Positions 6,169 to 35,346 of a stretch of DNA of 64,000 bases are shown here, one piece after another. Under the pieces are notes generated by a model. The model was not told the DNA's origin. It saw nothing but the letters and a program-made list of their open reading frames with translations, and searched no databases. The position numbers were made by a program, and so were the translations under genes. Position 1 is the first letter of the stretch, and every line of letters begins with the position of its first letter. Source of the stretch: a virus; IMG/VR virus record IMGVR_UViG_3300029634_000047, positions 1-64,000 of that record. One strand, 5' to 3'.

Positions 6169-6186
6169 GGGGGGGCAAGCTTGTAC

Positions 6187-6636
6187 TTATTTCTCTGCCG
6201 ATATTATCCCCTCTTCCTTATAAGATGCTTCAAACTGTTTGGTAAGCGCAATAATCTGCTGGTTCGTCTTTACCAGTTCAACAGTGTATTGTTTCAGTTT
6301 GTAAAGTAGGGCAAGTGCTTTCTTTTCCGTAAAGTTGGAATGAAGTTCTTTCACCGTTTGGTTATAGAGTATGCCTATGCTCCTGAATTGTGAAAACAGT
6401 TGGGAGAGTTGGATGTAATAATCAACCTTGCTTTTATCAATCCTAAGTACCTTAAACGACTTCCCAAAGATGCAGTTCTTAATAAAATGTGCTTTTACCT
6501 TGTAACCTGACTGGTCGTAAAAGGCTAAGAACTTGGCGTTCTCCACATCGTCCAAATTAAGAGAATAGCGGTGTGTTCGTGGGTCAAGTTTAGGCTTGCA
6601 CCCGCCTTTGTTAAATGGCTTCTTTTTCTGTTCCAT
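6187..6636 (-). CDS. MobC-like plasmid mobilization relaxosome protein
   Basis: Size and sequence pattern of Bacteroides MobA/MobC-family small mobilization proteins. Confidence 0.45.
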   Translation of the reverse strand: MEQKKKPFNKGGCKPKLDPRTHRYSLNLDDVENAKFLAFYDQSGYKVKAHFIKNCIFGKSFKVLRIDKSKVDYYIQLSQLFSQFRSIGILYNQTVKELHSNFTEKKALALLYKLKQYTVELVKTNQQIIALTKQFEASYKEEGIISAEK

Positions 6637-7127
6637 AATGATAATTATTTACTGGTTATACGACTTCGGAGTAAAACTAACCACCTTTTAAGGTGGCAAG
6701 GTTTTGAGGCACAAAAAATGAAATGAGTGCCTCAAAACACAACTTGCTGTTATCATGTGATAACAAAAATCTTCCCTATGGTCAGATTGCAAAAGCAAGC
6801 GGCTTGGCTTTATCCTATGTCTGTTTATTGGTTACAAAATTACAGACAGCAATTTACCTTTGAAATATGCCCTATTACGCCAAATTGGGAGACAAACGGA
6901 CAAAGCAACCCCATTTTTAAAAGCATCTATTTTTACCCTTTTCTTTGCTGAAAATTGATTGAATGGCAACAATATATAAGACAGTCAAGCAAGGTTCAAA
7001 TATGGCTTTAAACCATATTTGAAAACCGTTTAGAAATATAGCAACACTGCTATAAAATTGGCTTGTTCCCTTTCAATCAATATCAGAAATCAATCAACCT
7101 ATTTATAAACTATTAGAATTTGAAAGC

Positions 7128-7427
7128 ATGGAAAAAGAAAAACAATCATTACAGGAAACTGGAAGTAAGGAACAGGAAAGCTATAAATCGGTGTTTCTTA
7201 AAAAGCGGTCGGTTTGCAATCGTCAAAGCGTGTACATAAGCGGAGAGATACAGAAACGTATTGTTCAGATTGTAGGCGTGATTACAAACAAGCAGGTAAG
7301 CATCGGAAATTTTATTGATAACGTACTGGAAGAACATTTAAGTGCGCACAATGATGTCCTTTCGGCTCTCTACCGGGAAGAAATGCAAAAAGGAATATTC
7401 AACCAGCCAAAAGAGAAAGACGTATGA
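7128..7427 (+). CDS. DUF3408-like protein (mobile-element associated)
   Basis: Resembles small DUF3408 proteins next to mob genes in Bacteroides elements. Confidence 0.35.
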   Translation: MEKEKQSLQETGSKEQESYKSVFLKKRSVCNRQSVYISGEIQKRIVQIVGVITNKQVSIGNFIDNVLEEHLSAHNDVLSALYREEMQKGIFNQPKEKDV

Positions 7428-7729
7428 ATATCGTAACTATTGAGGAACAGACCTTTAAACAGATATGCGGGCAGTTCTCCGGTTTCGTCAGTCAGGTGGA
7501 ACGGATTTGTAGAGAGAATACTCACCAGCCGGAGAAATGGTTGTCAGGTCGTGAAGTGTGCGCCCTGCTCGGTATCAGCATCCGAAGTTTGCAGAACTAC
7601 CGGGACAGTGGCAAACTGGGCTATTCCCAAATCGGTAACAAACTATACTATAAATCTGCCGACATAGAAAGATTGATTGCTGAATGTACGGAAAACAAGA
7701 AAACAAATCATATATCAAACAATAAATAA
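7424..7729 (+). CDS. HTH_17/excisionase-family DNA-binding protein
   Basis: LSGREVCALLGISIRSLQNYRDSGKLGYSQIGNKLYYKSADIERL. Confidence 0.55.
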   Translation: MNIVTIEEQTFKQICGQFSGFVSQVERICRENTHQPEKWLSGREVCALLGISIRSLQNYRDSGKLGYSQIGNKLYYKSADIERLIAECTENKKTNHISNNK

Positions 7730-7739
7730 AGATGGTCTT

Positions 7740-8042
7740 ATGGAAAAGAAAGAAGAAAATAATACAGAAATAAAGCAGTCATTCAACTTGTCTGCCATTG
7801 TCGGAATATGGGAAAGTCTAAATCTTCATCCTACGGTAATGATATACCAAAGTAAGAAAAAGTATCTGCTTTCGATGCTCCATGTATCGGATAACGGACA
7901 GGCGCAACCAGCCACTTATGAAATACAAAAGGAAGATAGCCGTTACTTTATCGTTTCAGTCTTTAAACAGCTTTATATCGGCTATGACAAGGTAAAAGAC
8001 AGCCTTTCCATTTCTTATTATGGCGAGTATTTGCGTAACTGA
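7740..8042 (+). CDS. hypothetical protein
   Basis: ORF from ATG at 7740 (track ORF 7677 uses TTG). Confidence 0.3.
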   Translation: MEKKEENNTEIKQSFNLSAIVGIWESLNLHPTVMIYQSKKKYLLSMLHVSDNGQAQPATYEIQKEDSRYFIVSVFKQLYIGYDKVKDSLSISYYGEYLRN

Positions 8043-8100
8043 CAGGTGATATATATCAATCATTCAAACCAATTATAAATCAATAAAACGATATAACAAT

Positions 8101-8394
8101 ATGGAACTGATAAACGGCAACAATGAGATAATTAAGGATTTCTTTCAGTCTATGGAAAGAATGTTAGAGGGTATCGGTAAACTGGCAAGGGAAAGCAGAC
8201 CGCATTTGAACGGTGAGAAGTTTCTAAGCAACCGGGAAGCATCCCAATATTTGAAAGTAAGCATCCGCACGCTGCAAGAATGGCGAGATACGGGTGTTAT
8301 CCCTTACATTCAGATAAAAGGCAAAATAATCTATCGTCAAAGCGACATAGAACGGCTTTTGCAGACCTACTATAATAAAGAACGGCAGGAATAA
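8101..8394 (+). CDS. HTH_17/excisionase-family DNA-binding protein
   Basis: FLSNREASQYLKVSIRTLQEWRDTGVIPYIQIKGKIIYRQSDIERLL. Confidence 0.55.
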   Translation: MELINGNNEIIKDFFQSMERMLEGIGKLARESRPHLNGEKFLSNREASQYLKVSIRTLQEWRDTGVIPYIQIKGKIIYRQSDIERLLQTYYNKERQE

Positions 8395-8685
8395 TCTGCT
8401 ACCCTTAAAAAACACATTTTTTTCCGAAACTGACTAAGAACATTAACTCTATCAGTGTAGTATTCCGTCGGTGCAAGCCTTTGGAAGAAAATACAACCCG
8501 GAGCGTAGCGCAGGTGTGGAGATTTTCTTTCAAACCCGTAGGGCTTGGGCTTGAACGGACGGAATACGGAGCTTACCTTTGTTAATGTTTTATTCAGCTT
8601 CGGAAAATTCCTCTTAAAAAGAAATCAAACAAAATCATATTGCACCCAATAAAATTCCGTATATTTGTTTTTAAATACTAAAATC

Positions 8686-10245
8686 ATGGAAAATAGAATA
8701 TTAGAATTTATTGGACATTATAATACTGCACCATTTTTATTTGTTGGTTCTGGATTTTCACGTAGATATTTAGGCTTAGAAGATTGGGAAGGATTGCTAA
8801 AACGGTTTGCTACATTAAATAATGTAGATTATCAATATTACTTTTCATCTTCCGGTGGTAAGCTACCTCGAATAGCATCTTTAATTGCGGAAGACTTACA
8901 TGAACGATGGTGGAAATTGCCTGAATATGAAAAAAGTAGAAATAGATATAAAGAATATAATACAAATAAATATTCTGCATTAAAAATAGAAATATCTCAT
9001 TATCTGAAAGGGAAAATGGATATCAAAATCCAAGATAAAATACTTTTAGAAGAATTAGATTTATGCAAAAAAATAGTCATAGACGGTATTATAACAACAA
9101 ACTACGACAACTTATTAGAAAAAATATTTAGTGATTTTAAAACATATATCGGTCAAGAAGAATTGTTCTTTTCATCTCCTCAAGGAGTTGGAGAAATATA
9201 TAAAATACATGGCTGTCAATCCAAACCTAACTCCTTAATATTAACCGATGAAGATTATATTTCTTTTGAAAAGAAAAATCCATATTTAGCAGCTAAGTTA
9301 CTTACGATATTTACAGAGCATCCAATCATTTTTATTGGTTATTCTTTAACCGATGAAAACATTCTCAAAATTTTAAACTCAATAGCACAATGTTTAACAA
9401 GTGACAACCTGCAAAAATTAAAAAATAGGCTTATTTTTATTCAATATAATGTATCTCAACAAGAGATAGAATATGCAACTCATACTATAGCACATGAAGA
9501 AATACGTATTCCTGTAAAAACTATCACAATGAGTGATTTTAGACCACTATTTCTTGCATTATCATCTATTAAGAGAAAATTTCCCGCAGGTTTACTTCGC
9601 TTATTAAAAGAACATATATATGAACTTGTTATGACAACAGACTCGTCATCTAAAGTTTATGTACAAAATATTGATTCAAAAGAAGACATCAAGAATTTAG
9701 ATGTTGTTTTGGGGATAGGTGCTATTAATAAAGTTGTAAAGGCTGGATATAGACGTTATGAACGGAAAGATTTGATTGAAGATATTCTTATAAAAGATAA
9801 ATCGTTGAATAATAATGATATTGTAAATGTTACTTTACCTGCTTTATTAAAGAGCACAAAATATCTGCCATTCTTTAAATATTTGGTCAATTCAAATTAC
9901 TATCAAGAGCAGAAACCCATAGACACTGTTGATGAAAGAATTATAAAACATCATTTATTGGCTATACAACATAAATTTTATGAGCCTACCGGAAAATATG
10001 ACATTAGGAAGAAAAAAGATGTTGCATCTTATCAAGAAACAATGATTGATTTTATCGACGAATTTGGGTTAGAATATATTAAATATATACCATATCTAAA
10101 AAAAGACAAAATCAACTCTGACGATTTATTTGAAGTCTTGAATAAGCATATTTCTGTTTTAGAAGGAAATAATGAAAATCTAAAAAGCGTTTTTTACAAA
10201 ATGATATGCTATTATGATTTTCTCAAATATCATTTAGGAAAATGA
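8686..10245 (+). CDS. SIR2-family (SIR2_2/DUF4020-type) protein with uncharacterised ~200-aa C-terminal domain; putative anti-phage NADase
   Basis: LFVGSGFSRRY, TTNYDNLLE, IYKIHG, IFIGYSLTDENI motifs of defence-type SIR2 domains; cargo position next to integrase. Confidence 0.65.
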   Translation: MENRILEFIGHYNTAPFLFVGSGFSRRYLGLEDWEGLLKRFATLNNVDYQYYFSSSGGKLPRIASLIAEDLHERWWKLPEYEKSRNRYKEYNTNKYSALKIEISHYLKGKMDIKIQDKILLEELDLCKKIVIDGIITTNYDNLLEKIFSDFKTYIGQEELFFSSPQGVGEIYKIHGCQSKPNSLILTDEDYISFEKKNPYLAAKLLTIFTEHPIIFIGYSLTDENILKILNSIAQCLTSDNLQKLKNRLIFIQYNVSQQEIEYATHTIAHEEIRIPVKTITMSDFRPLFLALSSIKRKFPAGLLRLLKEHIYELVMTTDSSSKVYVQNIDSKEDIKNLDVVLGIGAINKVVKAGYRRYERKDLIEDILIKDKSLNNNDIVNVTLPALLKSTKYLPFFKYLVNSNYYQEQKPIDTVDERIIKHHLLAIQHKFYEPTGKYDIRKKKDVASYQETMIDFIDEFGLEYIKYIPYLKKDKINSDDLFEVLNKHISVLEGNNENLKSVFYKMICYYDFLKYHLGK

Positions 10246-10303
10246 TTCAAGAAAAAATAGGCAATCAATAGCATGGCATATAGCTATTGATTGCCCTCAT
10301 TCT

Positions 10304-11533
10304 CTATTTTATAAGAAAATTTCTTTCCACATTTGCCATATCACGCATAATAGAGCTATCTAAAACTTTTGCATAATGCTGTGTCATTCGGATATTGGAA
10401 TGTCCCAAAATCTTAGACACATTTTCCATTGATACATCATTGGCAAGGAAAACAACTGTAGCCGCAGTATGTCTTGCAACATGCGTAGTTAGACGTTTAG
10501 TAATGCCGCATAAATCAGCGATTTCTTTTAAGTAGGCATTCATGCGCTGATTACTGATTACAGGCAAAAGTACACCTTTCTTTATGCACTCTGCATTATC
10601 TTCATATTTCCTCAATATCCTTTGAGGAATAGATAAAACAGGAATATTGCACATTTGATTAGTTTTCTGTCGTGCCTTGCGTATCCATAAAGCACCACTA
10701 TTGTCTTTTATCAGATGTTCACGGCTTAACTGCTGCACATCAACGAAAGCAAGCGCAGTAAAACAGCAAAAGACAAAAATGTCCCTTACCTGCTCCAGCC
10801 GTTTAATAGTAAATTCCTTGTTCATTAGAATATCCAGTTCCTCACGTGAAAGAAATTCCACATTTACTTCTTCCTGCTTGAAGTGGATGCCGTAAAATGG
10901 GTCTTTCTTTATCCAGTCGTTAGCCAAAGCAATACGGACAACCTTTTTCAAGTTCTTCAAATGTTTCAATGCAGAGTTGTTTTGGCAATGCTTATCCGTT
11001 TTCAGCCAAAAATCAAAATCACGGATAAACTGCCCATCCAGTTCTGCCAACATTATATCATCATGGTGGTAACAACTGCGGATATATTCTTTCAGGCGGT
11101 TTATGGAAGTATCAAACTTGGTAACGGTGCTTTCAGTATATTCTTTGCCAATCAGGGCACGACATTTTTCGTTATGCTCTGCATACATTTCCAGCAAACT
11201 GCGCTGTACCTTGTCCCGTCCGTAAAAACAATCCTTTATTATATCGGCTGTTATTGGCTTGTTATCTATCTCCAGTTCTCGGTGTATCTGCAATACTTTG
11301 GCACGAACCGTATTAATATAGTGGTTCAGTTCTGTGGCTACACGGTCTTTTCCTTTGGAACATTCCTTTTTCTGATTCCATAAATCTACAGGAATATTCC
11401 GTTTAATCATAACTTCGGCTACTCGCTTGTTTACGGTGATGCGCATACAAACAGGAGCTTCACCGTTTTTCAGAAGTTTTGATTTCTTAATGATGAACAA
11501 TACGCTTAATGTGTTTCTTTTCACTGCTCCCAT
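10304..11533 (-). CDS. int: tyrosine site-specific integrase (Bacteroides type, N-terminal arm-binding domain)
   Basis: C-terminal catalytic region HVARHTAATVVF...ILGHSNIRMTQHYAKV; N-terminal MRITVNKR arm-type domain. Confidence 0.85.
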   Translation of the reverse strand: MGAVKRNTLSVLFIIKKSKLLKNGEAPVCMRITVNKRVAEVMIKRNIPVDLWNQKKECSKGKDRVATELNHYINTVRAKVLQIHRELEIDNKPITADIIKDCFYGRDKVQRSLLEMYAEHNEKCRALIGKEYTESTVTKFDTSINRLKEYIRSCYHHDDIMLAELDGQFIRDFDFWLKTDKHCQNNSALKHLKNLKKVVRIALANDWIKKDPFYGIHFKQEEVNVEFLSREELDILMNKEFTIKRLEQVRDIFVFCCFTALAFVDVQQLSREHLIKDNSGALWIRKARQKTNQMCNIPVLSIPQRILRKYEDNAECIKKGVLLPVISNQRMNAYLKEIADLCGITKRLTTHVARHTAATVVFLANDVSMENVSKILGHSNIRMTQHYAKVLDSSIMRDMANVERNFLIK

Positions 11534-11864
11534 AATTCTTTGATTTTTAAGTGATACAAAATTAGTTTGTTACGCTCAAAAACCAGCTACGCAAAATACT
11601 GACAATCAAAGACAAATGCGTCAATTCGTGGGAGCAAAACCGGCTTTCAAAAAGTCCCATGAATAAGCCACGTAAGGACTGCCTAAAACCGCTATTTTTT
11701 GCCGAAGCGGAGAAAAAGAAAAAGCTCTGAAATCCTTGAATTTCAGAGCTTTGCTTTAATTTGCTATTTGCTTTCGCGGTGCGTACGGAACTAACACATT
11801 TTACTATCATACTGATAATCAGTAAAATACTTGTTAAAAATATATTAATGGTATCATATTTATA

Positions 11865-12203
11865 TCATCTCCGCTTATTTTCTTCTATAATTTTATGCAA
11901 AGCTTCTATTTGCATCATTGCACCCTCATAAGCCGCTTTATAATTGACATTCGCATCAATATCCGTCTCAATCATATTCCCTTTGCCAGTACAAAGCCAC
12001 TTCACATTCAATTCCGGAAACTTATCCACAATACGAGCTATTATATCAGTTCCAATAGCCCCCTTCCCGTTCCTTATGGAGTTATAGATGTATCTATTTG
12101 ACAATTCACAATAAGCCTCAAACGAGTTCTCACCTTTGACAACTCCCTTATCACGTGCATACCTTGCAAATTTTCGTAATCTGTCAATAGCCCTTTCTTC
12201 CAT
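11865..12203 (-). CDS. phage CI-like repressor HTH-domain protein
   Basis: N-terminal region resembles phage CI repressor HTH; adjacent to S24 repressor on same strand. Confidence 0.4.
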   Translation of the reverse strand: MEERAIDRLRKFARYARDKGVVKGENSFEAYCELSNRYIYNSIRNGKGAIGTDIIARIVDKFPELNVKWLCTGKGNMIETDIDANVNYKAAYEGAMMQIEALHKIIEENKRR

Positions 12204-12204
12204 A

Positions 12205-12975: not shown

Positions 12976-12994
12976 ACTTCGTAAATTAAGTAGT

Positions 12995-14202: not shown

Positions 14203-14232
14203 TCCCGGACGGATTTGGCCGTCTTTCCGGGA
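14203..14232 (+). terminator. hairpin tcccgga...tccggga
   Basis: 7-bp perfect stem right after stop of 13951-14202. Confidence 0.4.
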
Positions 14233-15359: not shown

Positions 15360-16328
15360 ATGAGTAATATAGAAGATACAATTTACAATCTGCCAAATGA
15401 AGAATACCACCGTGGAGAAAGATTCAAAGATTTCCTAAGTAGTACGCAGATTAAAGATTATATGGTGTCCCCAAAGTTTGCCCGATACAAGGCATTGCAC
15501 CCTGAAATGTTCGAGATCAGTATTGAAGCTTCTGAAAAAGGCTCGCTGTACCATGATGCAATGGAAAGTCTTGTTAATACTGGAACACTTGACAAATGGA
15601 GAAACAATCTTCTTGTATTTGAGCCACCTATAAATCCTAAAACTGGCTGTCCGTATGGACGAGACACCCAAAAATATCAGATTGCACTAATAGAGGCCAA
15701 AGAATCAAATCCCGGTAAAACATTGACAAGCACAACCGATATACAATTGGTTGAAACAATGGTTTATGAGCTTCTTAATAATTGCCGGGACACCTCCAAA
15801 CAGATTAGGCAGATATTAAAATGGGGAAAAGCCGAAGTTAGCCATTTCGTTGAATACGAAGGATGCAAGTTCAAATATCGCCCTGATGTGGAAACGGCCA
15901 AAAAAATTGTTGACTGGAAAACATTGGCGGTTGATGATCTTCATGAAGAAACAGTTAACCGGACTATCGCCAAATTTCATTACGGTATTTCGGCAGCCTT
16001 CTACCAGTTTTTTGAACATGAACGTACTGGAGTATGGAAGGAGTTCTACTGGGTTATGCAACAAAAGACAGCTCCCTATGACGCAGTATTTGTCAGTGCA
16101 GCTAACTGGGCTTTCCATTTGGAAGACGGAATTGTGAAAATGGGGGCAAGCGCATTGGCATTCAAGAAATTGTTAGACCAGCATGTTTACTGTACACAAA
16201 ACAATGATTTTGACGGTGCACAGATATTTATTCAGCCGGGATTCAAAGGACGAAGAATAATGATACCTGACACACCTGCATTTGAAAAGAACAAGATGTT
16301 TAACTTTTATAATAATCAAGAACAATGA
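15360..16328 (+). CDS. PD-(D/E)XK exonuclease (DUF3799/RecE-like)
   Basis: N-terminal NEEYHRGERFKDFLSSTQIKDYMVSPKFARYK pattern of DUF3799; immediately upstream of recT. Confidence 0.5.
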   Translation: MSNIEDTIYNLPNEEYHRGERFKDFLSSTQIKDYMVSPKFARYKALHPEMFEISIEASEKGSLYHDAMESLVNTGTLDKWRNNLLVFEPPINPKTGCPYGRDTQKYQIALIEAKESNPGKTLTSTTDIQLVETMVYELLNNCRDTSKQIRQILKWGKAEVSHFVEYEGCKFKYRPDVETAKKIVDWKTLAVDDLHEETVNRTIAKFHYGISAAFYQFFEHERTGVWKEFYWVMQQKTAPYDAVFVSAANWAFHLEDGIVKMGASALAFKKLLDQHVYCTQNNDFDGAQIFIQPGFKGRRIMIPDTPAFEKNKMFNFYNNQEQ

Positions 16329-17233: not shown

Positions 17234-17457
17234 TGGATTCATGTGAAAAAATTAGTAACAGTATCACAGCGGCTAAAGAACTGATCGAAAATGAAACACG
17301 TTCTTTGGCTGCTTTACATAAAGCAAAACAGCTTGAAAAAGAGCTTCATAAATCCGGCAAGTTGTTTCGTATTCCTACAATGAACGGAATTATAGAAACA
17401 ACCTGCCCGGAAAAATACATAGAATACAATAACCAGTTTAAAATCAAATTAAAATGA
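17233..17457 (+). CDS. hypothetical protein
   Basis: ATGA-coupled small ORF. Confidence 0.3.
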   Translation: MDSCEKISNSITAAKELIENETRSLAALHKAKQLEKELHKSGKLFRIPTMNGIIETTCPEKYIEYNNQFKIKLK

Positions 17458-18069
17458 GAACAGTAACAGTTGAAGTGCCCGAAGGACACATGGTAAAAAT
17501 CGTGAAAGAAGAAAGTATGCAATCTACCCAAAAAGTTATGGGGGGGGGGTAAATTTGAGTTTGAAGGTGAGACATTCATCCCCGGTGACGTAATTATCAA
17601 TCCAAATCGCGGAGGGGGCAGCATGATGATTCTCTCTGAAATTAGAGAAGAAAGGCCGCTTCCTTTTTTACCAGCAATAAAAGTACCTTTCGGCCTTGTC
17701 GCTTATGTTCCTTCCAACGATGAAGGTGACAGAGTTTTTGTAAAACTCACACCCGAAGCTGGTATCGGAGGCATGAAGGGATTCCGTAAAGCTACAGAAG
17801 AGGAAAAGGCAAAGATGCTTGCCGCCATGAAGGAAGAAAAACATTACTCCTTCAATTTTGAGAAGTTACAGCCTGAATATATCCCGACTGTCGGCGATGT
17901 TGTTATTGTATGGGATGATAACAACAAAGAAAATGCGGTAGTCGGTATTATGAATGAAGTGGATGAAACGAGCAACCCATACAAAATAAATGATGGCACT
18001 TGGTATAAGAACTGCGACAAGTTCGTTTCAGAAAAACAATATAAAAATTTGATTGATGGGAAAGAGTAA
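17454..18069 (+). CDS. hypothetical protein interrupted at a G10 tract (17540-17549)
   Basis: ATG 17454 frame reads ...QKVMGGG* through G10; downstream frame (track ORF 17623-18069) continues; deleting one G fuses. Confidence 0.4.
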
Positions 18070-18355
18070 ATCTAAATCGGGGGGGGCGAGAAATTACACT
18101 CCCCTTCTCACAGCTCGTCCCAAAGGAATGAGCTACCAAGAGTATCGTGAACGCAGAGCCTATCAGAACGCATGGTTGAAAGAGCGACTGAAAGGCTTTA
18201 TTTGTTATGTATCGTCTGAACTGGTTGTATATGACAAAATAACGGGATTACCCCGATTATTCAATCATCGTACAGATGATATACACAAAGCAAACATAAG
18301 GACTAACCCACAGCCATTTGTCGGTTCTGCCCGATATGGCTTAAAACCGTTATGA
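18053..18355 (+). CDS. hypothetical protein (contains in-frame G8 at 18079-18086)
   Basis: ORF; overlaps previous gene by 17 nt in the +1 frame. Confidence 0.3.
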   Translation: MMGKSKSKSGGARNYTPLLTARPKGMSYQEYRERRAYQNAWLKERLKGFICYVSSELVVYDKITGLPRLFNHRTDDIHKANIRTNPQPFVGSARYGLKPL

Positions 18356-19819: not shown

Positions 19820-19981
19820 ATGAAGACTGTAAAGAAATACTGGAAGCCGGTACTTGTCGTATCGGCTTTCTTCATTGGCAACCGCGTATTCAATCACATA
19901 AATGCGTGGTTGGGAATTTCAATAATTATGCTAACAGTAGCATTTATAGTTTATAATATCATTAAAAAAAGTAGAAAATGA
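19820..19981 (+). CDS. small membrane protein (53 aa, not in track)
   Basis: ATG at 19820, hydrophobic core, ATGA coupling to next gene. Confidence 0.3.
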   Translation: MKTVKKYWKPVLVVSAFFIGNRVFNHINAWLGISIIMLTVAFIVYNIIKKSRK

Positions 19982-20787
19982 AAAGAAAGATTGATTTTTT
20001 GATTGTGGCACTATTTGCCGTTGTTTTGTTTGCTTCATGCGAAAGAGTTGCTCCCAATTATGCCGGTGTCCTTATGGAGAACTACGGCAAACAAGGGAAA
20101 GAAGATTTTAAAATCGTTGCCGGTAAGGTATCTACATGGGAATTAGGCACAGAGCTTTTTCAAGTTCCGCTATTCGATCAGCGCGGAGAATTTTCTGATC
20201 CAGTCACACTAAAGGCAGCCGACAATACAGAGTTTACAGCCCGGCCAACTTACTCTTATAAAGTAATGAAAAACAGGGCTATTGATATTGTATTTGATAA
20301 CAAGCATATTGATAAGGCTGACACCCCATCGGGAAAAGATGGCTTTATGCAATCATTAGAAGATAATATTTTGGAGCCACGTATATATGATCTTATCAAA
20401 GAAGAAAGTCGCAAACATAAAACAGACAGTCTGATGGCTGACGGTGGTTCATTGGTATTTGAAAAGAGACTGGAACAGATCGTTGATAAAGAATTTGAGA
20501 AACGGGGATTGCAGTTGTTGACCTTCTCCGCACAATTGGAATTTTCAAGAGCTGTCCGCGATAAAATAGATAGCCGTAACGAGGTAAACACTAATATTTC
20601 GGTACTTGATCAGAAGATTGAAGAACAAAAGAAGCAAAACGAACTGGAGCAACTAAAAACAGAACAAGCTTTAATTGCGTCCCGTGGACTCACCCGTGAG
20701 ATTTTATATAAACAATTTATAGACAAGTGGGACGGGAAGACACCTCTATATGGCATTGCTCCTGAATTTTTAAAAATGACAAAATAA
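19978..20787 (+). CDS. SPFH/band-7 family lipoprotein
   Basis: Lipobox LFASC; SPFH-like core then coiled coil. Confidence 0.45.
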   Translation: MKRKIDFLIVALFAVVLFASCERVAPNYAGVLMENYGKQGKEDFKIVAGKVSTWELGTELFQVPLFDQRGEFSDPVTLKAADNTEFTARPTYSYKVMKNRAIDIVFDNKHIDKADTPSGKDGFMQSLEDNILEPRIYDLIKEESRKHKTDSLMADGGSLVFEKRLEQIVDKEFEKRGLQLLTFSAQLEFSRAVRDKIDSRNEVNTNISVLDQKIEEQKKQNELEQLKTEQALIASRGLTREILYKQFIDKWDGKTPLYGIAPEFLKMTK

Positions 20788-21539: not shown

Positions 21540-21991
21540 AACGAAGGATCATAGGTATAGATGTTGGCAAAAACGGTGGAATTGTAGTGTACGACACCGA
21601 GAATAACAGATTATTGGAGTGTATCAAAATGCCACCAACTCCCAAAGACTTATTAGATTTTCTCTCTATATACAAAGAAAATAGCGTTTGTTATTTGGAA
21701 CGAGTGAATGGCATGACCGGACAAAGTGCTTCTGCCTCTTTTGTTTTTGGAGAAGGTTACGGACAGCTGACTATGGGATTGATAGCTTGTGGGATTCCGA
21801 CAGTAACAGTATCTCCACAAATTTGGCAAAAAGCTTTCGGATTACGGAATACAGACAAATTGAGTAAGACAGAATGGAAAAACACCTTAAAGAAGAAAGC
21901 TCAACAGCTGTTCCCGTATGCAAAAGTTACATTGGCAACTTCGGATGCCTTACTAATATGTGAATATGGTAGAATTAAAGAAAAGGAATAA
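21536..21991 (+). CDS. RuvC-like Holliday junction resolvase
   Basis: N-terminal IIGIDVGKNGGIVVYD motif of RuvC/YqgF-fold resolvases. Confidence 0.55.
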   Translation: MKRRIIGIDVGKNGGIVVYDTENNRLLECIKMPPTPKDLLDFLSIYKENSVCYLERVNGMTGQSASASFVFGEGYGQLTMGLIACGIPTVTVSPQIWQKAFGLRNTDKLSKTEWKNTLKKKAQQLFPYAKVTLATSDALLICEYGRIKEKE

Positions 21992-22264
21992 TGGAAAATT
22001 TTAAAAAATGCAGTAAATGTGGCCGGGAACTTCCGGCCAGCGAGTTTTGGAAAAATGCTTCAACCGAAGATGGATTGCAGACATATTGCAAAGAGTGCGG
22101 TAATGTTTATGCCAAAAACCGTAAGAAAACTCCGGGGGGGGGGATTGAAGAAAATATATTCCAATCCTGAATTGGCAAGATTTTCTCCACGGGAACTTAT
22201 CGCAGAATTGAAAGCGCGTGGATATACCGGAGAATTAAAATTTACCCAAACAATATCATTATAA
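21991..22264 (+). CDS. zinc-ribbon protein interrupted at a G10 tract (22134-22143)
   Basis: ATG 21991 frame: MENFKKCSKCGRELPASEF...CKECGNVYAKNRKKTPGGG then shifts; downstream frame (track 22019-22264) continues LKKIYSNPELARFSPRELIAELKARGY. Confidence 0.45.
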
Positions 22265-22803
22265 TGGAAAAGTTACGTCTATTGGTTACAACCAAATGTC
22301 CGAACAAATGTCCTATGTGTTGCAACAACTCATGGGATTTTTCAAAATTACCAGTTGTTGAGCATTTTAATTACAAAGAGATCATGATAACTGGTGGAGA
22401 GCCACTTTTGTTTCCTGAAAAACTGTCAAATTTGGCCGAAAGTATCAGAACCGTTCAGAAATTGGCCTATGGCAATAAAGGAAAATTATTTCTATATACG
22501 GCACTGGCTGATATGCTTCCCAATTATATCAGATATTTCGATGGAGTTGTTTACACTCCACATTCTGCTAATGATGTTCATAGTTTATTGAAGACCAATA
22601 ATTTTTTGTTGGACTACAAAGATGAACTTATGGAAAGTAAATCTCTTCGACTCAATCTTTTTCCTGATATTAAAAAGCATATTCCTGATAACACAAACCT
22701 TTCGTTATGGAAAGTAAAAGATATGCAATGGATCAAAGATTGCCCGGTTCCGGCGGCTGATGAAGAGTTCAAAAGAGTAGCTGAATTATGGGAGGTGGAA
22801 TGA
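22264..22803 (+). CDS. small radical SAM protein (activase/QueE-like)
   Basis: CPNKCPMC (CX3CX2C) cluster motif and ITGGEPLLF SAM-binding motif; 179 aa. Confidence 0.55.
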   Translation: MEKLRLLVTTKCPNKCPMCCNNSWDFSKLPVVEHFNYKEIMITGGEPLLFPEKLSNLAESIRTVQKLAYGNKGKLFLYTALADMLPNYIRYFDGVVYTPHSANDVHSLLKTNNFLLDYKDELMESKSLRLNLFPDIKKHIPDNTNLSLWKVKDMQWIKDCPVPAADEEFKRVAELWEVE

Positions 22804-23895
22804 TGAAAGATGTAATTACCCCCCCCCAAACATCTCTATCCGTATCGCTGGTTTTTAGAAGATACTGTTTTTACTAAAGATAAAGGAAAGGTCTTTTCTT
22901 GCTTTGCGTGTGGTGGTGGCTCTACAATGGGGTACAAGTTAGCCGGATTTGATGTAATTGGCTGCAATGAAATAGATCCCAAAATGATGAAATGCTACAT
23001 TGAAAACCATAATCCTCAATATACTTTCTTAGAAGATATTCGTGATTTAGTGAGAAGGAATAATCTTCCCGAAGAATTGTACAATTTAGATATATTGGAC
23101 GGATCACCACCTTGCAGTACATTTAGCATGTCGGGATTACGTGAAGATGCGTGGGGTAAAGAAAAGAAATTCAAGGAAGGTCAAAAGACACAAGTTTTAG
23201 ATACGCTCTTTTTTGATTTTATTGCACTTGCCAAACGCTTAAAACCTAAAGTTGTTATTGCTGAAAATGTGAAAGGACTTCTTTTAGGGAATGCGATTGA
23301 TTATGTCAGACGTATATACAAAGGCTTTGAGGAAGCTGGTTATTATTGTCAGCATTTTCTTCTTGATGCTTCTAAAATGGGAGTACCTCAAAAAAGAGAA
23401 CGTGTATTCTTTATATGTATCAGGCATGATTTGGGAGTCCATTTTCTAAAAGTTTCAGACCTCTTCAATGTTGAGCCACATATTTGTATGAAGTTTAATG
23501 AAATACCCATTTTGATGAAAGAAATAACAGACTTTAAGGGGAAAGAAATTAAAAATGGTACAAAAATTCGATATGTTTGGGAACATAGAGAAATTGCTGA
23601 TAAAGACATGTCTGATACATGTATGCGACTATACGGTAAAGAGTTATTCTTCTCAAAGAAATATATACTTGAAGATCGCATTTGCAATACGATAACTTCC
23701 AAGCATGATGATTTGGTACACTTTACACAACCTTTATATCTAAGTACATCTGAAATCTGTAAAGTATCTACTTTCCCCATCGACTATAACTTTTACAACC
23801 AATCCCCACATTATATCTGTGGAATGAGTGTACCACCCGTTATGATGGCACAAGTAGCCTCACGAGTATGGAAATATTGGTTATCTAAATTATAA
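22803..23895 (+). CDS. DNA (cytosine-5)-methyltransferase interrupted at a C9 tract (22819-22827)
   Basis: Motif I FSCFACGGGS (upstream of track ORF, other frame), motif IV PPCSTFSMSG, motif VI AENVKGLL; ATG 22803 overlaps upstream stop (TGATG); C8 would fuse. Confidence 0.8.
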
Positions 23896-27006: not shown

Positions 27007-27008
27007 AA

Positions 27009-27863
27009 ATGAAAATATTAGTAAGTTTTTCAGGTGGTAAGGATTCACAAGCATGTTTGATCCAAGCCTTCAAACAATATGGGGGGGGGGGGAATTTAAC
27101 CGCTGTGTTTTGTGACACCGGTTGGGAACACCCTGACACATATAAACATGTGAATGATGTTTGTCTGCAAATGGGAGTAAAACTTATAACTCTCAAATCA
27201 AAATACGATTTTGTGTCTTTAGCAGCTCATAAGAAAAGATTTCCTTCCACGAATGCACGGTTTTGTACCAGTGAACTAAAAATGAAGCCAATGATTGATT
27301 ATGTACTTTCTTTGAAAGAAAGCTGCATTATCATACAAGGTATCAGAGCCGGAGAAAGTACAGCACGTGCGGCAATGGAAGAGGAATGTATGTACTTTAA
27401 ATCGTATTTTCAACCTAATAAAAAAGGAAGAACTGAAAATTACCGAAGTAAAGATGTCAAAGAATGGTGTTCCCAATATGACGCCTCTGTTCTAAGGCCA
27501 ATCTTTAAATGGAGTGCGCAGCAAGTTATAGATTGCATACTGGATGCAGGGCAGGAACCGAATCCATTGTATTATCGCGGATTCTCACGTGTTGGATGTT
27601 TCCCATGTATTATGTGTCGGCACAAAGAAATTGAACTTATAGCCAAAAATGATCCTGAAATGTGTCAACGTCTGATTCAAGCAGAGAAAAGCGTAGGACA
27701 TTCCTTCTTCCCTCCATCATACATACCTCAAAGATTTTGTAAGAACAAACAATATCCTTATGTAGAGGAAGTTTTGGAATATGTTAAAGAACATACCCCT
27801 GATATGTTCGAGCCAGAAGGTGGATATGCCTGCATGAGTCTGTTCCATGGGTTATGCGAATAA
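27009..27863 (+). CDS. PAPS-reductase-family/PP-loop ATP pyrophosphatase (DndC/phage PAPS reductase-like); contains in-frame G12 (27081-27092)
   Basis: SFSGGKDS PP-loop, C-terminal CxxC cysteines. Confidence 0.65.
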   Translation: MKILVSFSGGKDSQACLIQAFKQYGGGGNLTAVFCDTGWEHPDTYKHVNDVCLQMGVKLITLKSKYDFVSLAAHKKRFPSTNARFCTSELKMKPMIDYVLSLKESCIIIQGIRAGESTARAAMEEECMYFKSYFQPNKKGRTENYRSKDVKEWCSQYDASVLRPIFKWSAQQVIDCILDAGQEPNPLYYRGFSRVGCFPCIMCRHKEIELIAKNDPEMCQRLIQAEKSVGHSFFPPSYIPQRFCKNKQYPYVEEVLEYVKEHTPDMFEPEGGYACMSLFHGLCE

Positions 27864-27875
27864 ATAAAAATATTA

Positions 27876-28352: not shown

Positions 28353-28361
28353 TCTGATAAA

Positions 28362-28709: not shown

Positions 28710-28729
28710 TAGTACAGAAAGGAGCCAAT

Positions 28730-29399
28730 ATGCCAATAAGTGAAGTTTATAATATGGATTGCATGGAATATATGAAAAATATTCCTGATAAGTTCTTTGA
28801 TTTAGCGATAGTCGATCCCCAGTATGGCATAGACATAATGCATAAAGGTGGGATGCCGAAGCATTTAGGCTTTAAACAATATAAAAGAAAAGATTGGGAT
28901 AAGTCCCCCCCCCGGAAAGAAATATTTTGAGGAACTATTCAGGGTATCGAAGAATCAAATAATTTTTGGTGGTAACTACTTTACTACCTATCTTCCTCCC
29001 AAAATGGGGTGGATTGTTTGGGATAAAGGACAACATGGATTAACTATGTCTGATGGTGAATTGGCATGGAGTAGTTTTGACAAGGCTCTTCGGATCATAA
29101 CTCTAAACCGGTGTACAATTGGAGAACGAGGTGGAAATATCCATCGTTGTCAGAAGCCAGTGAAATTATATGCTGAAATATTAAGAAAAAACGCCAAAGA
29201 GGGAGACAAAATTTTTGATAGTCATTTAGGTTCAGGAAGCAGCAGAATAGCTGCTTATGGACTTGGATTCGATTTCTATGCAACCGAAATAGATGAAGAA
29301 TACTTTGAAGCACAAGAAGAACGTTTTCACCGGGAATGTTTTGGGGAGATAAAAACAGAGAGAGGAACATTGGTTCAAACTAATTTATTTGATAAATAG
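28730..29399 (+). CDS. DNA N6-adenine methyltransferase interrupted at a C9 tract (28905-28913)
   Basis: N-part DLAIVDPQYG (motif IV-like); middle KNQIIFGGNYF and C-part HRCQKPVKLY...DSHLGSGSS in the other frame; C8 would fuse. Confidence 0.7.
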
Positions 29400-29401
29400 A
29401 T

Positions 29402-29749
29402 ATGAAGCAGACATTAGAAGAAGCCGTAAATGAAATTGGAGGTGTACATCCTGACTGGGATAAAATAACTTGTTTTAGAATAGGATTTAAAGAAGGAGCC
29501 AGATGGCAAACAAAACAACCTCCGTGGGTATCAGTGAAAGAACGGTTGCCGAATGAAAATGAAGACATTATCATTCTATGTAAACATGGTGCGATTTTTA
29601 ACGGTACATATAGCAACAATGTATGGTTCTGCATGGATGGTTATATCCATGATATGTACAAAGGTAATCCGATTTACTCTTCAATGAGCAGCATACCTTC
29701 ATCATGGGAACCGATAGCATGGATGCCAAGACCTAAATTTGAAGAATAA
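29402..29749 (+). CDS. hypothetical protein
   Basis: ORF. Confidence 0.3.
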   Translation: MKQTLEEAVNEIGGVHPDWDKITCFRIGFKEGARWQTKQPPWVSVKERLPNENEDIIILCKHGAIFNGTYSNNVWFCMDGYIHDMYKGNPIYSSMSSIPSSWEPIAWMPRPKFEE

Positions 29750-30667: not shown

Positions 30668-30668
30668 G

Positions 30669-30905
30669 ATGAAATTAAACAAAAAGACAGAGCGACTTAT
30701 TAAACGTAAAGCCGCTGAACTTAAAAAATTATACGAAACTCCTAATCCCGAAGTAGATAAAATTATTTCTGAATTGAGAGCAGAAGCAACGAAACGTCCA
30801 CAGAACATGAGTAAGGAAGAAGAGATTGCTTATATTCTGAAAAAGGCTGATGAAAATTGCGATCATATAGAAATTCGTAAAATCCTAAATGAAAGTAATA
30901 CATGA
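30669..30905 (+). CDS. hypothetical protein
   Basis: ORF. Confidence 0.3.
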   Translation: MKLNKKTERLIKRKAAELKKLYETPNPEVDKIISELRAEATKRPQNMSKEEEIAYILKKADENCDHIEIRKILNESNT

Positions 30906-31393
30906 ATACATCTTTTGAACGATCTGCAAACGCTTCCGATGAATGGTACACACCACGAGAAATCATTGAAGCATTAGGCGAATTTGACCTTGATCCATGT
31001 GCTCCCATGCACCCTCTTTGGCCTACTGCAAAAATCATGTACAACAAGCAGGACAATGGTCTTATACAAAATTGGGGGGGGCGAATTTGGCTTAACCCTC
31101 CGTACTCCAAACCGCTTATATGGCAGTTTGTAGAAAAATTGGCAGAACACGGCAACGGTATAGCACTACTTTTTAACCGGTGTGACAGCAATAAGTTTCA
31201 AGACATCATCTTCACGAAAGCAACCGGTATGATGTTTTTGAGGAATCGAATAAAATTCTTCCGTCCCGATGGAACACGTGGGGACAGCCCCGGTTGTGGA
31301 AGTGTTCTTATTGCATTTGGCCGGGAAAATGCCGAAATTTTAAGGAATTGCTCTTTACAAGGCAAATATGTTGAACTTAACAATGATAAATGA
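30902..31393 (+). CDS. phage Dam-type DNA N6-adenine methyltransferase
   Basis: SDEWYTPREIIEALGEFDLDPCA and WLNPPYS (NPPY) motifs; in-frame G8 at 31074-31081. Confidence 0.7.
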   Translation: MNTSFERSANASDEWYTPREIIEALGEFDLDPCAPMHPLWPTAKIMYNKQDNGLIQNWGGRIWLNPPYSKPLIWQFVEKLAEHGNGIALLFNRCDSNKFQDIIFTKATGMMFLRNRIKFFRPDGTRGDSPGCGSVLIAFGRENAEILRNCSLQGKYVELNNDK

Positions 31394-31668
31394 TGAAAAT
31401 CTTATATTTACTCATGCTCATTGCCGGTCTTTTATGGATCGGTGATTTCTCCATCACCTTAAAGCCCTTTTCTGTATCTTTACCATGCTGGTATAAAACC
31501 GTTGGCATACTTCTATTTTGGCTGTCAATGACTATATATGTTTTAGGCGAGCATACTAAAGGCTATAAGGAAGGATTTGATACTGGAGTTAAAAAGTGCA
31601 TTGAGATACTTGATAGAAATTGCCACTCTAAAGAAATAAATAATGATGAAACGGTACAGAATCAATAA
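31390..31668 (+). CDS. small membrane protein
   Basis: Two hydrophobic helices. Confidence 0.3.
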   Translation: MMKILYLLMLIAGLLWIGDFSITLKPFSVSLPCWYKTVGILLFWLSMTIYVLGEHTKGYKEGFDTGVKKCIEILDRNCHSKEINNDETVQNQ

Positions 31669-31852
31669 GACTACTACATTCGTAGAAGATAATCACAGCG
31701 GAAATAAAGAGAAATACCTCATTCCTGATTACAAAGTGCAAGTCAAATTTGCGTGGATTTGGATAACAGTTAAGTCCTTCCATGATGAAGATGAAGAATA
31801 CGCAAAAAATTGTGCGAATGAACTTCTTGAAAAACTTAACGAAAAGATTTGA
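31643..31852 (+). CDS. hypothetical protein
   Basis: ORF. Confidence 0.25.
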   Translation: MMKRYRINKTTTFVEDNHSGNKEKYLIPDYKVQVKFAWIWITVKSFHDEDEEYAKNCANELLEKLNEKI

Positions 31853-33120: not shown

Positions 33121-33524
33121 TAGAAAAGACAGACTTCCCTTATACTCTTGGCGGCTATGTCGAACAGCAAAATTATAAAGGTTTCGACATAGCCGTTTCC
33201 ATTCGCAGATACAAAGGAATATCAGCTTATGTCATTTCCTCGGAGAAAAGGCTGATCCGTGAAGAATCTGCCACCTTTGCCGACAAAGAAGACATGTTCC
33301 GTTGGGGACGAGAAGCGGTTGACCGGTATTTGGAACAGCAAGAACGTAGAAAAGAAGAGAATGCAGTCAAACGGGCAGACTATTATAAGAAGAAAGCTCG
33401 TGTGGCAGCATTGAAAGCCTTTAATGCCGCTATGTATTTCTCTGATATAAAGGACGGACTTTATGATAAGGCAAAAGGATTTTTTGAATATGAACTGGAT
33501 AAGGAACATGCAAAGATCAGATGA
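33117..33524 (+). CDS. hypothetical protein
   Basis: ORF. Confidence 0.3.
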   Translation: MIEKTDFPYTLGGYVEQQNYKGFDIAVSIRRYKGISAYVISSEKRLIREESATFADKEDMFRWGREAVDRYLEQQERRKEENAVKRADYYKKKARVAALKAFNAAMYFSDIKDGLYDKAKGFFEYELDKEHAKIR

Positions 33525-34036
33525 AAACACTTGATATTATACAAGGCTTTTGCGATCATGTTTTTCGTGATAAAAAAGGAAACCGCATCTTTCCCAATAT
33601 TTTTGTCGGGAAATGGGAAGCTGACTTATTGGAAGTTACCCGGTCACGCCTGACTTATGAATATGAAGTAAAAGTAAGCAGATGTGATTTCCATAAAGAC
33701 AAAAAGAAAAGTGATAAATATGGCAAGAACAAGTTTGATGTTGTCACTTCCGGCCAACGTACCAATTATTTTTATTATATAGTACCGAAAGGTTTGATAA
33801 AGCCCGATGAAGTCCCTGATTTCTCCGGGCTTATTTATGCTTATGAAGGATCAGTGCAATGTTATTCTCTTGAAAAGGGAAGATATGCAGTAAAGAGAAT
33901 TTTCTTTGAAGTAGCCAAACCTGCCCAAAAAGTTTCTGACATAAAAGCGGATGATAACTTCATTCGTAAACTCGACTTATCCATGTACTATCGCTATCAC
34001 CAAATGAGAAGAGACAATTACAAAAACAAGGAATAA
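33521..34036 (+). CDS. hypothetical protein
   Basis: ORF. Confidence 0.3.
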   Translation: MKTLDIIQGFCDHVFRDKKGNRIFPNIFVGKWEADLLEVTRSRLTYEYEVKVSRCDFHKDKKKSDKYGKNKFDVVTSGQRTNYFYYIVPKGLIKPDEVPDFSGLIYAYEGSVQCYSLEKGRYAVKRIFFEVAKPAQKVSDIKADDNFIRKLDLSMYYRYHQMRRDNYKNKE

Positions 34037-34037
34037 T

Positions 34038-34439
34038 ATGGAATTAAGATTAGACCCTGAAATACCGGTCACACGGGTTGTCAACGGACATAATGTTTTC
34101 AATAAAGGCTACCACCATGGATTACGAGGAAAAACCTATGAAGAATACTATGGCAAAGAGAGAGCTGTTGAAATAAGAAAAAGACACAGCGAGGCTTTGA
34201 AAGGACATAGATATTGGTCTAATGGAAAAGCCCATGCTTTTGCGTGTATTGCAATCACTCCCGAAGGCAAATGGTGTAGATTCGATTCAATAACCCAAGC
34301 TGCCCAAAAGTTAAATCTGAATTATGCCACAGTTCGCCGGTATATAAAACGAAAAATCAAGCCCCAAAATGGCTGGCAATGGTTTTTGGAGAAAGATAAT
34401 AACTGGATAAAACATATTGATGATGGAAAAGCTGAATGA
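34038..34439 (+). CDS. hypothetical protein with NUMOD-like DNA-binding tail (ITQAAQKLNLNYATVRRYIK)
   Basis: Weak motif only. Confidence 0.25.
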   Translation: MELRLDPEIPVTRVVNGHNVFNKGYHHGLRGKTYEEYYGKERAVEIRKRHSEALKGHRYWSNGKAHAFACIAITPEGKWCRFDSITQAAQKLNLNYATVRRYIKRKIKPQNGWQWFLEKDNNWIKHIDDGKAE

Positions 34440-34716
34440 AATCGCACAAAAAGCTTATGAATGTGCTGTAAGACGTGGAAAGATTGATCCCGACAATGAT
34501 AGCAACAACAATCTTCACCGCGATCTGCTTGAAGAAGTTGCCGAAGTCTTTGAATGTACAGGTGAGAAATCTCCACATATTAAAGAGTATTTAGATGTAG
34601 AAGAAGAACTGGCAGATGTAATCATTGTTGCCCTAAGCACATTACACCATTTCAAATGTGACATTGATTCACTCATTGAAGCCAAAATGAATTATAATAA
34701 AAATAGAATGGATTGA
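34420..34716 (+). CDS. MazG-like nucleotide pyrophosphohydrolase
   Basis: EEVAEVFE...EEELADVIIVALSTL MazG-type motifs. Confidence 0.5.
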   Translation: MMEKLNEIAQKAYECAVRRGKIDPDNDSNNNLHRDLLEEVAEVFECTGEKSPHIKEYLDVEEELADVIIVALSTLHHFKCDIDSLIEAKMNYNKNRMD

Positions 34717-34806
34717 TATGGGAACCGGACAATTAATAAAATTGATTGTTGAGGCGTTTGTGCTTATCTTTGCACTACCATGTGTCTATAAAGATTTCAT
34801 GAACTT

Positions 34807-35346
34807 ATGGAAAGAAAAATAAGTGATATAAAAGACAAAAAGTTGAAAGCTGAAAATATCACATTGGCAGCAATATATAACATATTGTTCACCAATGATA
34901 TAGTTTGCTCCTTAATTGTAGAAATGTTAAGTGCATTACGCAAATCAGGGCTTTGTCGTTTCCGCGTAAAGCAGCAAGGAAATAAACTGGAACAGTTGAT
35001 GCTTCAATATGAAAAGAAAATCAATAAAATAGCCGGAAACCGGGCTTTTTTCATGGCTGATGCCAACCAATATGTTGCAGATGAAATACAACCTGATTTG
35101 CTTAAAATGGAATACTCCATTAAAATGGAGTTTGATAAATGCCGAATTGAGAACAGTGCCTTACTTGCCAAAGTAGAACTTACAAGATGTATGGCAGAGC
35201 TTGCTTGCCTATCCCTTGACAAACGGATAGAAGAAGTCCGTCCATATAATAAAGAAGTAACCGGAATAACATATCTCCGGCTCACTGACGCATTTAAAGT
35301 ACTGGATGAACTTTCTGATATTTTATATAAGGGGGGGGTACTGTGA
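34807..35346 (+). CDS. hypothetical protein ending right after a G8 tract (35331-35338)
   Basis: Removing one G would extend the ORF ~45 codons. Confidence 0.3.
   Translation: MERKISDIKDKKLKAENITLAAIYNILFTNDIVCSLIVEMLSALRKSGLCRFRVKQQGNKLEQLMLQYEKKINKIAGNRAFFMADANQYVADEIQPDLLKMEYSIKMEFDKCRIENSALLAKVELTRCMAELACLSLDKRIEEVRPYNKEVTGITYLRLTDAFKVLDELSDILYKGGVL

Follow-up and report, generated by a model that had tools for sequence, protein, structure and literature searches.

The early region of a LoVEphage-type Bacteroides prophage carries seven conserved G/C homopolymers that probably act as simple-sequence repeat (SSR) contingency loci, to judge from how their lengths vary among relatives. The prophage was found in positions 1 to 64,000 of the IMG/VR record IMGVR_UViG_3300029634_000047, a stretch of 64,000 nt with a G+C content of 38% that is referred to here as the window. 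Each of the seven tracts lies in the 5' half of one early gene (A to G). They keep their positions among relatives and differ in length even between nearly identical genomes; the length predicts whether the gene is in frame (ON) or out of frame (OFF). Phage progeny with different DNA-modification patterns would probably result.

An earlier reading of the window, made from the sequence alone, had listed nine G/C runs of at least 7 nt, called them over-represented, placed eight of them inside prophage coding sequence, several as Gly or Pro codon runs, and suggested a contingency-locus repertoire. All nine lengths and coordinates proved exact on recheck, and the whole 64 kb contains no other G/C run of at least 7 nt. 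The over-representation was borne out as well, with 8 runs of at least 8 nt observed versus 0.40 expected (a maximum of 3 in 300 dinucleotide-preserving shuffles) and 5 runs of at least 9 nt versus 0.09 expected under a first-order Markov model. Run lengths are distributed bimodally, with 17 runs of 5 nt, 2 of 6, 1 of 7, 3 of 8, 2 of 9, 2 of 10, and 1 of 12. Seven of the runs cluster within 14.5 kb (17.0 to 31.5 kb), where 0.11 runs of at least 8 nt would be expected, and the 28-kb late minus-strand region has no G/C run of at least 7 nt. The runs and the genes that carry them are as follows.

Outside the phage genes: run G7 at 6169-6175
Gene A: 17454 to 18069, plus strand, 204 amino acids (aa); run G10 at 17540-17549, codons 29 to 32
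Gene B: 18056 to 18355, plus strand, 99 aa; run G8 at 18079-18086, codons 8 to 11
Gene C: 21991 to 22264, plus strand, 90-aa zinc-ribbon protein; run G10 at 22134-22143, codons 48 to 51
Gene D: 22788 to 23895, plus strand, C5 cytosine DNA methyltransferase (PF00145, residues 34 to 359 of 368); run C9 at 22819-22827, codons 11 to 13
Gene E: 27009 to 27863, plus strand, PAPS-reductase-family PP-loop enzyme (PF01507); run G12 at 27081-27092, codons 25 to 28
Gene F: 28730 to 29399, plus strand, N6/N4 DNA methyltransferase (PF01555, phrog_67 and phrog_23224); run C9 at 28905-28913, codons 59 to 61
Gene G: 30902 to 31393, plus strand, Dam-family N6-adenine DNA methyltransferase (PF05869, phrog_111); run G8 at 31074-31081, codons 58 to 60
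Gene H: 34807 to 35473, plus strand, 221 aa; run G8 at 35331-35338, from codon 175

All eight phage tracts lie within plus-strand early-region open reading frames (ORFs), and their codon placement agrees with the description as Gly or Pro codon runs. Matched Pfam or PHROG domains, or essential motifs, span or flank the tracts. In gene F, the catalytic DPQY motif is 5' of the run and the S-adenosylmethionine-binding motif is 3' of it; in gene G, the run encodes W-G-G-R directly before the NPPY motif; in gene E, whose nearest PADLOC models are SspD, BrxP, and DndC, the PP-loop SFSGGKDS lies upstream of the G run. Motif I of gene D (FACGGGS) is found between the C run and the next ATG at 22927, and the 322-aa ORF reported by gene callers is devoid of it. 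The C9 run at 22819 had seemed intergenic because the callers start the methyltransferase at this ATG, which would delete motif I. The PHROG matches of gene C are to the endonuclease VII N-terminus, HNH, and Lar-like restriction-alleviation families. Gene A has homologues only within the LoVEphage family, with no Pfam, PHROG, or NCBIfam family match, and proteins A, B, and H matched no family in Pfam, PHROG, NCBIfam, or PADLOC. A role of the tracts as promoter-spacer or intergenic elements was rejected, since all eight phage tracts are inside ORFs, with domain matches.

The reading frame of each gene predicts its state in the window. Genes B (in frame at G8 or G11; window G8), E (in frame at G9 or G12; window G12), and G (in frame at G8; window G8) are predicted to be ON. 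Gene A is in frame at G9, and its G10 run leaves a 32-aa stub with a possible restart at 17623; the window alleles of C and D require G9 and C8 and have G10 and C9, respectively, and gene F, in frame at C8, has C9. Genes A, C, D, and F are thus predicted to be OFF, and gene H to be truncated.

For comparison with relatives, approximately 15.5 to 36 kb of the window were matched to loci from 32 IMG/VR records, 9 GTDB genomes, 6 phage records, and 80 metagenomes. About 120 relatives have the tracts at the window positions; a curated set comprises those of better quality, while an expanded set adds low-coverage metagenome contigs. Tracts A to G were found at the same position in 20 to 89 relatives per site, at lengths of 6 to 12 nt. 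Those of A, C, E, and G are kept in two divergent relatives (L030 and L043) that share only 76 to 87% nucleotide identity in the tract genes and their flanks, and in both of these the gene B run is interrupted (GGGAAGGGGG) with the gene ON. Nearly all G/C runs of at least 8 nt in the first 45 related loci (173 of 174) map to sites A to G or to H. Seven of the nine tracts listed by the sequence-only reading are therefore conserved in position and variable in length, the opposite of runs that are missing from close relatives and fixed in length.

The variation in length occurs on identical or nearly identical sequence backgrounds. More than one tract length occurs in 40 of the 48 haplotypes defined by identical 2 × 250-bp flanks, and 12 identical haplotypes at gene D carry C7, C8, C9, and C10. 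Loci L041 and L098 have 3 mismatches in 12.7 kb, yet differ at four of five tracts; L010 and L035, with 18 mismatches in 20.6 kb, differ at three of seven, and genome pairs with 3 to 5 mismatches in 13 to 14 kb differ at three to four of five. Judged from such near-identical pairs, a tract changes about a thousand times as often as a single site is substituted, a comparative estimate rather than a measured rate. Two independent records (L047 and L048), without a difference over 24.5 kb, have the same length at each of the seven tracts, which indicates that the lengths are not random assembly noise. The 33 control runs from the same region (A/T of 6 to 7 nt, G/C of 5 to 6 nt) are invariant or nearly so, bar one poly-A.

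This poly-A, at 19964-19970, is A6 in 16 relatives, A7 in 1, A8 in 8, and A9 in 1. A small membrane-protein ORF (19820-19981) has the run at its 3' end, and the ATG of a band-7/HflC-like lipoprotein gene (19978-20787) follows 8 nt later, such that a length change affects no more than the final residues of the small protein and the distance to the lipoprotein gene start.

Sequencing or assembly error at homopolymers whose true length is invariant is a very improbable source of the tract-length differences, even though many relatives are short-read metagenome contigs, some of 1 to 3× coverage, and contig breaks near the tracts are slightly more frequent than expected. The tracts occur in every source and technology (isolate genomes, induced phages, viromes, and metagenome-assembled genomes), cultured-phage and isolate records differ mutually at most sites, and differences of 2 to 4 bases are common. 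Given this diversity of sources, the agreement of L047 and L048, and the stability of the control runs of 5 to 7 nt, artefact was rejected as the main cause.

Both states were found at all seven sites among the relatives.

Site A: 38 ON, 23 OFF; lengths 6 to 11
Site B: 37 ON, 27 OFF; lengths 7 to 12
Site C: 29 ON, 54 OFF; lengths 7 to 12
Site D: 26 ON, 63 OFF; lengths 6 to 12
Site E: 15 ON, 57 OFF; lengths 6 to 12
Site F: 18 ON, 17 OFF
Site G: 20 ON, 36 OFF; lengths 6 to 10

The OFF alleles are otherwise intact: in the curated set, 107 of 108 would give full-length ORFs by a tract change of 1 to 2 nt alone, and in the expanded set 240 of 277 are repairable by tract change alone. ON alleles are found at lengths three bases apart (G8 and G11 for B; G9 and G12 for E). 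After repair, the genes have a ratio of nonsynonymous to synonymous substitution (dN/dS) of 0.06 to 0.31 at a synonymous divergence (pS) of 0.15 to 0.21, which implies that the full-length proteins are under selection, though most sampled C, D, E, and G alleles are out of frame. Across 42 genomes scored at six or more sites, 36 distinct ON/OFF combinations were observed, and no pairwise association between site states was detected. Nor was an ON/OFF difference detected between integrated and phage-size contigs. As in SSR contingency loci, the tracts are repeats of hypermutable length within ORFs, and an in silico length series switches the frame; comparison adds that change is far above background and that OFF alleles are intact, and by this comparison switching looks reversible.

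Homopolymers are classical slippery sequences, and the abundance of out-of-frame alleles at D and E with intact downstream ORFs could also be explained if RNA-polymerase slippage or ribosomal frameshifting restored the frame, the tract serving to tune dosage or to give two products. Genes E and G moreover have ATGs 5' of the run in all three frames. We consider recoding of this kind quite improbable, because a recoding site implies a fixed length, while the lengths observed on identical haplotypes fall in each of the three frames. The device would also have to be present in seven genes that are unrelated, no stimulatory structure was seen, though none was sought, and the alternative-frame N-termini of E have no PP-loop and are not conserved protein. 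The pattern typical of programmed frameshifting or transcriptional slippage, namely, a site of fixed length with both frames conserved, was not seen. Low-level leakiness by recoding may exist alongside contingency loci.

As judged from codon usage and homologues, the tracts are a feature of the DNA rather than a requirement of the proteins. GGG accounts for 15% of Gly codons and CCC for 14% of Pro codons in the window phage; outside the tracts, GGGGGG encodes none of 56 Gly-Gly dipeptides and CCCCCC none of 13 Pro-Pro dipeptides. Where the LoVEphage Dam protein has W-G-G-R, encoded by TGG GGG GGG CGA, the Dam homologues of other Bacteroides phages (BKO1-TP3, BT50, B40-8, and BV741P4; 57 to 76% aa identity) have W-I/E/V-G-R, as in TGG ATA GGC CGG, without a run. 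PAPS-reductase homologues of other Bacteroides phages and of bacteria have Y-G-x-x and are full length, with the PP-loop kept and the run absent. At gene F, six relatives, all of them ON, have nearly the same peptide, with KKPPG in place of KSPPG, and encode it by AAACCACCT, in which there is no run. In BKO1-TP3, a temperate Bacteroides phage that shares this enzyme set, 33 kb of sequence contain not one G/C run of at least 7 nt. The run-free homologues elsewhere indicate that the tracts are derived and specific to this lineage.

Tract H differs from the seven in age and distribution. As the sequence-only reading had noted, removal of one G from 35331-35338 extends the ORF that starts at 34807; the extension is from 179 to 221 codons, i.e., 42 codons rather than the approximately 45 first given. 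The window allele thus has one G too many, and its protein is truncated to 179 aa. The corresponding segment is AGGGAGGG in 36 relatives and GGGGAGGG in 7, with the frame kept in all 43, and one divergent allele without any run also keeps the frame by the length of the segment; full-length ORFs (~221 aa) were confirmed directly only in 21 curated relatives. An uninterrupted run, in which the interrupting A has been lost, is confined to a sub-lineage consisting of the window, PV4-TP1, and four others, and in the five sub-lineage relatives its length is already variable (G8, G8, G9, G9, and G11). From these alignments, the run looks like the birth of a hypermutable tract, young and restricted to the sub-lineage.

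The G7 run at 6169 was rejected as a member of the set. It lies in non-phage DNA beside MobC_2, DUF3408, and AraC genes, directly follows a hairpin and T8 terminator next to the MobC-like gene, and is without a counterpart in the relatives. The proposed contingency-locus repertoire is therefore supported for tracts A to G, which are conserved, variable in length, and in genes that are intact and selected, but it does not extend to G7 at 6169, which is not phage, or to G8 at 35331, which is young and found in one sub-lineage.

The likeliest function is suggested by the genes themselves. All three DNA methyltransferase genes of the window and the PP-loop enzyme gene are tract-bearing, for which we calculated a random chance of ~2 × 10^-4 (7 tracts among ~45 to 48 early genes). 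That every one of the methyltransferases and the SspD/DndC/BrxP-like enzyme carries a tract points to stochastic variation of phage DNA modification. As the prophage or the lytic genome replicates, slipped-strand mispairing would add or remove one or more bases at a tract; each such event would change the frame of that gene, would be reversible, and would leave the other sites unaffected. Of the seven genes, four are predicted to be of the DNA-modification type (a C5 methyltransferase, an N6/N4 methyltransferase, a Dam-like methyltransferase, and the SspD/DndC/BrxP-like PP-loop enzyme), and the product of a fifth, gene C, resembles restriction-alleviation or endonuclease proteins. One lysogen lineage should in this way yield phage genomes in many modification states, with 2^7 = 128 frame combinations available. 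Methylation shields DNA from classical restriction-modification and yet exposes it to modification-dependent (Type IV) nucleases, and the likely benefit would be bet-hedging by a phage that lysogenizes many Bacteroides and Phocaeicola species. Slippage as the cause, a consequence for methylation, and a benefit to the phage are inferred; the tracts, their frames and conservation, the recurrent length changes, the intact and selected genes, and the independence of the sites were shown computationally.

A non-adaptive account of the same tracts appears unlikely, although part of the data suits it. On this account the tracts are tolerated mutational hotspots that grow by slippage where frameshifts are cheap, in accessory early genes, and are purged from essential late genes, with ON and OFF states drifting. 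The late structural genes are indeed tract-free, integrated and phage-size contigs are alike in their states, and tract H arises by loss of an interrupting A and slips at once. What such drift would leave unexplained is that the full-length proteins are selected (dN/dS of 0.06 to 0.31 at a pS of ~0.2), that a second lesion is absent from 107 of 108 OFF alleles, and that the tracts persist in L030 and L043 despite 13 to 24% divergence in the tract genes and flanks. The codons in the tracts are rare and are never paired elsewhere, and the tracts are concentrated in one functional class, while sister phages with the same genes are tract-free.

Several points weigh against the view that the seven tracts are contingency loci. 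The ON fraction is approximately one-third for C, D, F, and G and 0.21 for E, as free drift of a tolerated frameshift hotspot would also give. Of ordinary four-fold sites, 38.5% are polymorphic, and the tracts contain too few such sites to reveal whether third codon positions are better conserved inside them. In the expanded set, 37 of 277 OFF alleles have further defects; low-coverage contigs may account for many of them. The evidence comes from the comparison of consensus assemblies; many of these are short-read metagenomes, which are prone to error at long G runs. As a weak hint of mixed lengths within a sample, contigs break at tracts somewhat more often than expected (10 of 100 versus 4.1 expected; p = 0.008), which low poly-G coverage could also explain. 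Methylation of phage DNA at particular motifs by the tract-bearing enzymes, and a change of sensitivity to restriction with the ON or OFF state, are predictions, and genes A and B are of no known function.

If the contingency loci function as proposed, a farther-reaching scenario opens, which we put forward tentatively and with some doubt: a combinatorial "epigenetic wardrobe" of seven switches in the most prevalent temperate Bacteroidota gut phage. Methyltransferases and a phosphorothioation-like PP-loop enzyme would flip independently, and every burst would hold genomes pre-adapted to varied restriction, which could help to explain the broad host range; lysogens might show phasevarion-like methylome heterogeneity, and SSR switching would operate in a genus regarded as reliant on invertases. 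Few temperate phages are commoner in human gut viromes than those of the LoVEphage type (PMC12629997, PMC12694917). Their host range and restriction escape in the gut would then hinge on tract state besides gene content, lysogen methylomes may vary clonally, and engineering or therapeutic use would need tract-locked alleles.

Annotations would also be systematically wrong if the switches are real, with methyltransferases split or deprived of motif I and the PAPS reductase deprived of its PP-loop. Gene G (Dam) is annotated as two split coding sequences in MW660583, PV4-TP1, BI-TP1, and OY731433. Out-of-frame forms of gene E are annotated as 260- and 268-aa proteins without a PP-loop, and protein cluster P0090 (268 aa, 2287 members) is the out-of-frame gene E with a spurious N-terminus and no PP-loop. 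Because ATGs are present in all three frames 5' of the E and G tracts, a long ORF results at any tract length, and the frameshift always escapes the gene callers. Calls of "cysH/PAPS reductase" auxiliary metabolic genes from the LoVEphage family may often be such out-of-frame forms. A literature search on PptA with PAPS reductase and phage found nothing.

The assignment of the prophage to the LoVEphage lineage follows from collinearity of window positions 11771-63998 with MW660583 positions 19822-70642 in six blocks of 92.5 to 97.3% identity, ~96% overall. Six phage records (MW660583, the cultured temperate phages PV4-TP1 and BI-TP1, and three further LoVEphage records) cover 89 to 96% (at least 80% in each case) of a 22.5-kb query at 95.5 to 96.8% identity. 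An integrase gene at 10304-11533, together with non-phage DNA to its left, indicates an integrated prophage with its left junction, and by these sequence comparisons the window is a LoVEphage-type Bacteroides prophage. Positions 1 to 10.3 kb match no phage record and are therefore host or mobile-element DNA. This left flank (1-10300; G+C content of 32 to 34%) encodes a DUF488 protein, AraC-type regulators, an aldo/keto reductase, an HTH_17 excisionase-like protein, MobC_2, DUF3408, and a SIR2-like protein, and looks like the remnant of a mobilizable element. Megablast aligned neither the integrase gene (10304-11533) nor window positions 1-11770 to the integrase module of MW660583; the integration module may therefore have been exchanged.

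The SIR2-like protein (526 aa; 8665-10245, plus strand) directly adjoins the integrase gene and may belong to the prophage or to the neighboring element. It matches the PADLOC candidate defense family PDC-S25 (E = 1e-168) and has weaker similarity to ThsA and Dsr2. ARAGORN found zero tRNAs in the 64-kb window. MW660583 has a block of eight tRNAs at 17-858, in the part of the genome outside the window alignment (19822-70642), and a two-piece "tRNA-His/Undet" annotation at 29237-29439. In OY731433 (L045), barrnap calls a "5S rRNA" on the minus strand at 15951-16056, between the PAPS-reductase and DUF551 genes.

A complete diversity-generating retroelement occupies window positions 40880-43531 on the minus strand. 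Its reverse transcriptase is encoded at 40880-41695, its template repeat is at 41971-42088, and its variable repeat, at 42258-42375, lies in the 3' end of a tail-collar fibre gene (42212-43531). The two repeats are 84% identical, with 18 of 19 mismatches at template adenines. With the homopolymer tracts, the phage thus has two separate hypervariation devices. Both are targeted; the retroelement acts by adenine-directed mutagenic retrohoming of the tail-fibre sequence, without frameshift switching.

Contingency loci are already known in Campylobacter phages and T-even phages, and none was found described for LoVEphage. The published descriptions of LoVEphage, BI-TP1, and PV4-TP1 leave homopolymers, frameshifts, and phase variation unmentioned, and our literature searches turned up no SSR switch described for a Bacteroides phage. 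In phage T2, as shown experimentally, the DNA-modification gene agt switches via an SSR, with escape from TgvAB set against escape from McrBC (bioRxiv 10.1101/2025.10.21.683753; Gomez, Barrick, and Waters). Like the LoVEphage tracts, the poly-A SSR of T2 agt and that of T4 rIIA are homopolymers in phage genes; they undergo reversible ±1 frameshifts, as is probable for LoVEphage, and agt encodes a DNA-modification enzyme, as several of the LoVEphage tract genes are predicted to do; in T2, the ON or OFF state of modification trades sensitivity between restriction systems and leads to bet-hedging among progeny. The T-even phages are virulent, and their tracts, A runs of 6 to 9 nt of which a gene has one or two, stand among more than 100 weak SSRs; reversion assays and read counts served to validate them. 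LoVEphage, in contrast, has seven long G/C runs (8 to 12 nt) and hardly any other G/C runs in a temperate Bacteroides phage, with all methyltransferases affected and with evidence that is comparative.

In the Campylobacter phage study of Sorensen et al., the polyG tracts are reportedly in receptor-binding and structural genes of lytic phages, and the host is itself polyG phase-variable. In LoVEphage they lie in early DNA-modification genes. The account cited in PMC12823448 holds that polyG tracts of Campylobacter Fletchervirus vary in length, resulting in phenotypically mixed phage populations (Sorensen et al. 2021, Cell Rep 35:109214). For the host genus Bacteroides, the phase variation described in PMC10333322 is invertase-based, and the LoVEphage tracts differ from it in being SSR-based. 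Bacterial phasevarions, in which SSRs are found in phase-variable Type III and Type I mod genes (Seib et al. 2020, as cited in PMC10333322), share with the LoVEphage methyltransferases the place of the SSR, in the 5' part of a methyltransferase coding sequence, and ON/OFF methylation, the latter predicted for LoVEphage. Phasevarion methyltransferases are chromosomal parts of restriction-modification systems that alter host expression, whereas those of LoVEphage are orphan enzymes in a lytic-cycle operon; an effect of the prophage methyltransferases on the lysogen methylome is possible. What distinguishes LoVEphage is the number of switches, the long G/C runs in an AT-rich genome, the focus on DNA modification, and the ecological prominence of a phage family with a broad host range, found as prophage in many Bacteroides and Phocaeicola species (PMC12629997, PMC12694917). 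With the LoVEphage tracts, phage contingency loci would be known not only in Campylobacter phages and T-even coliphages but also in temperate phages of Bacteroidota.

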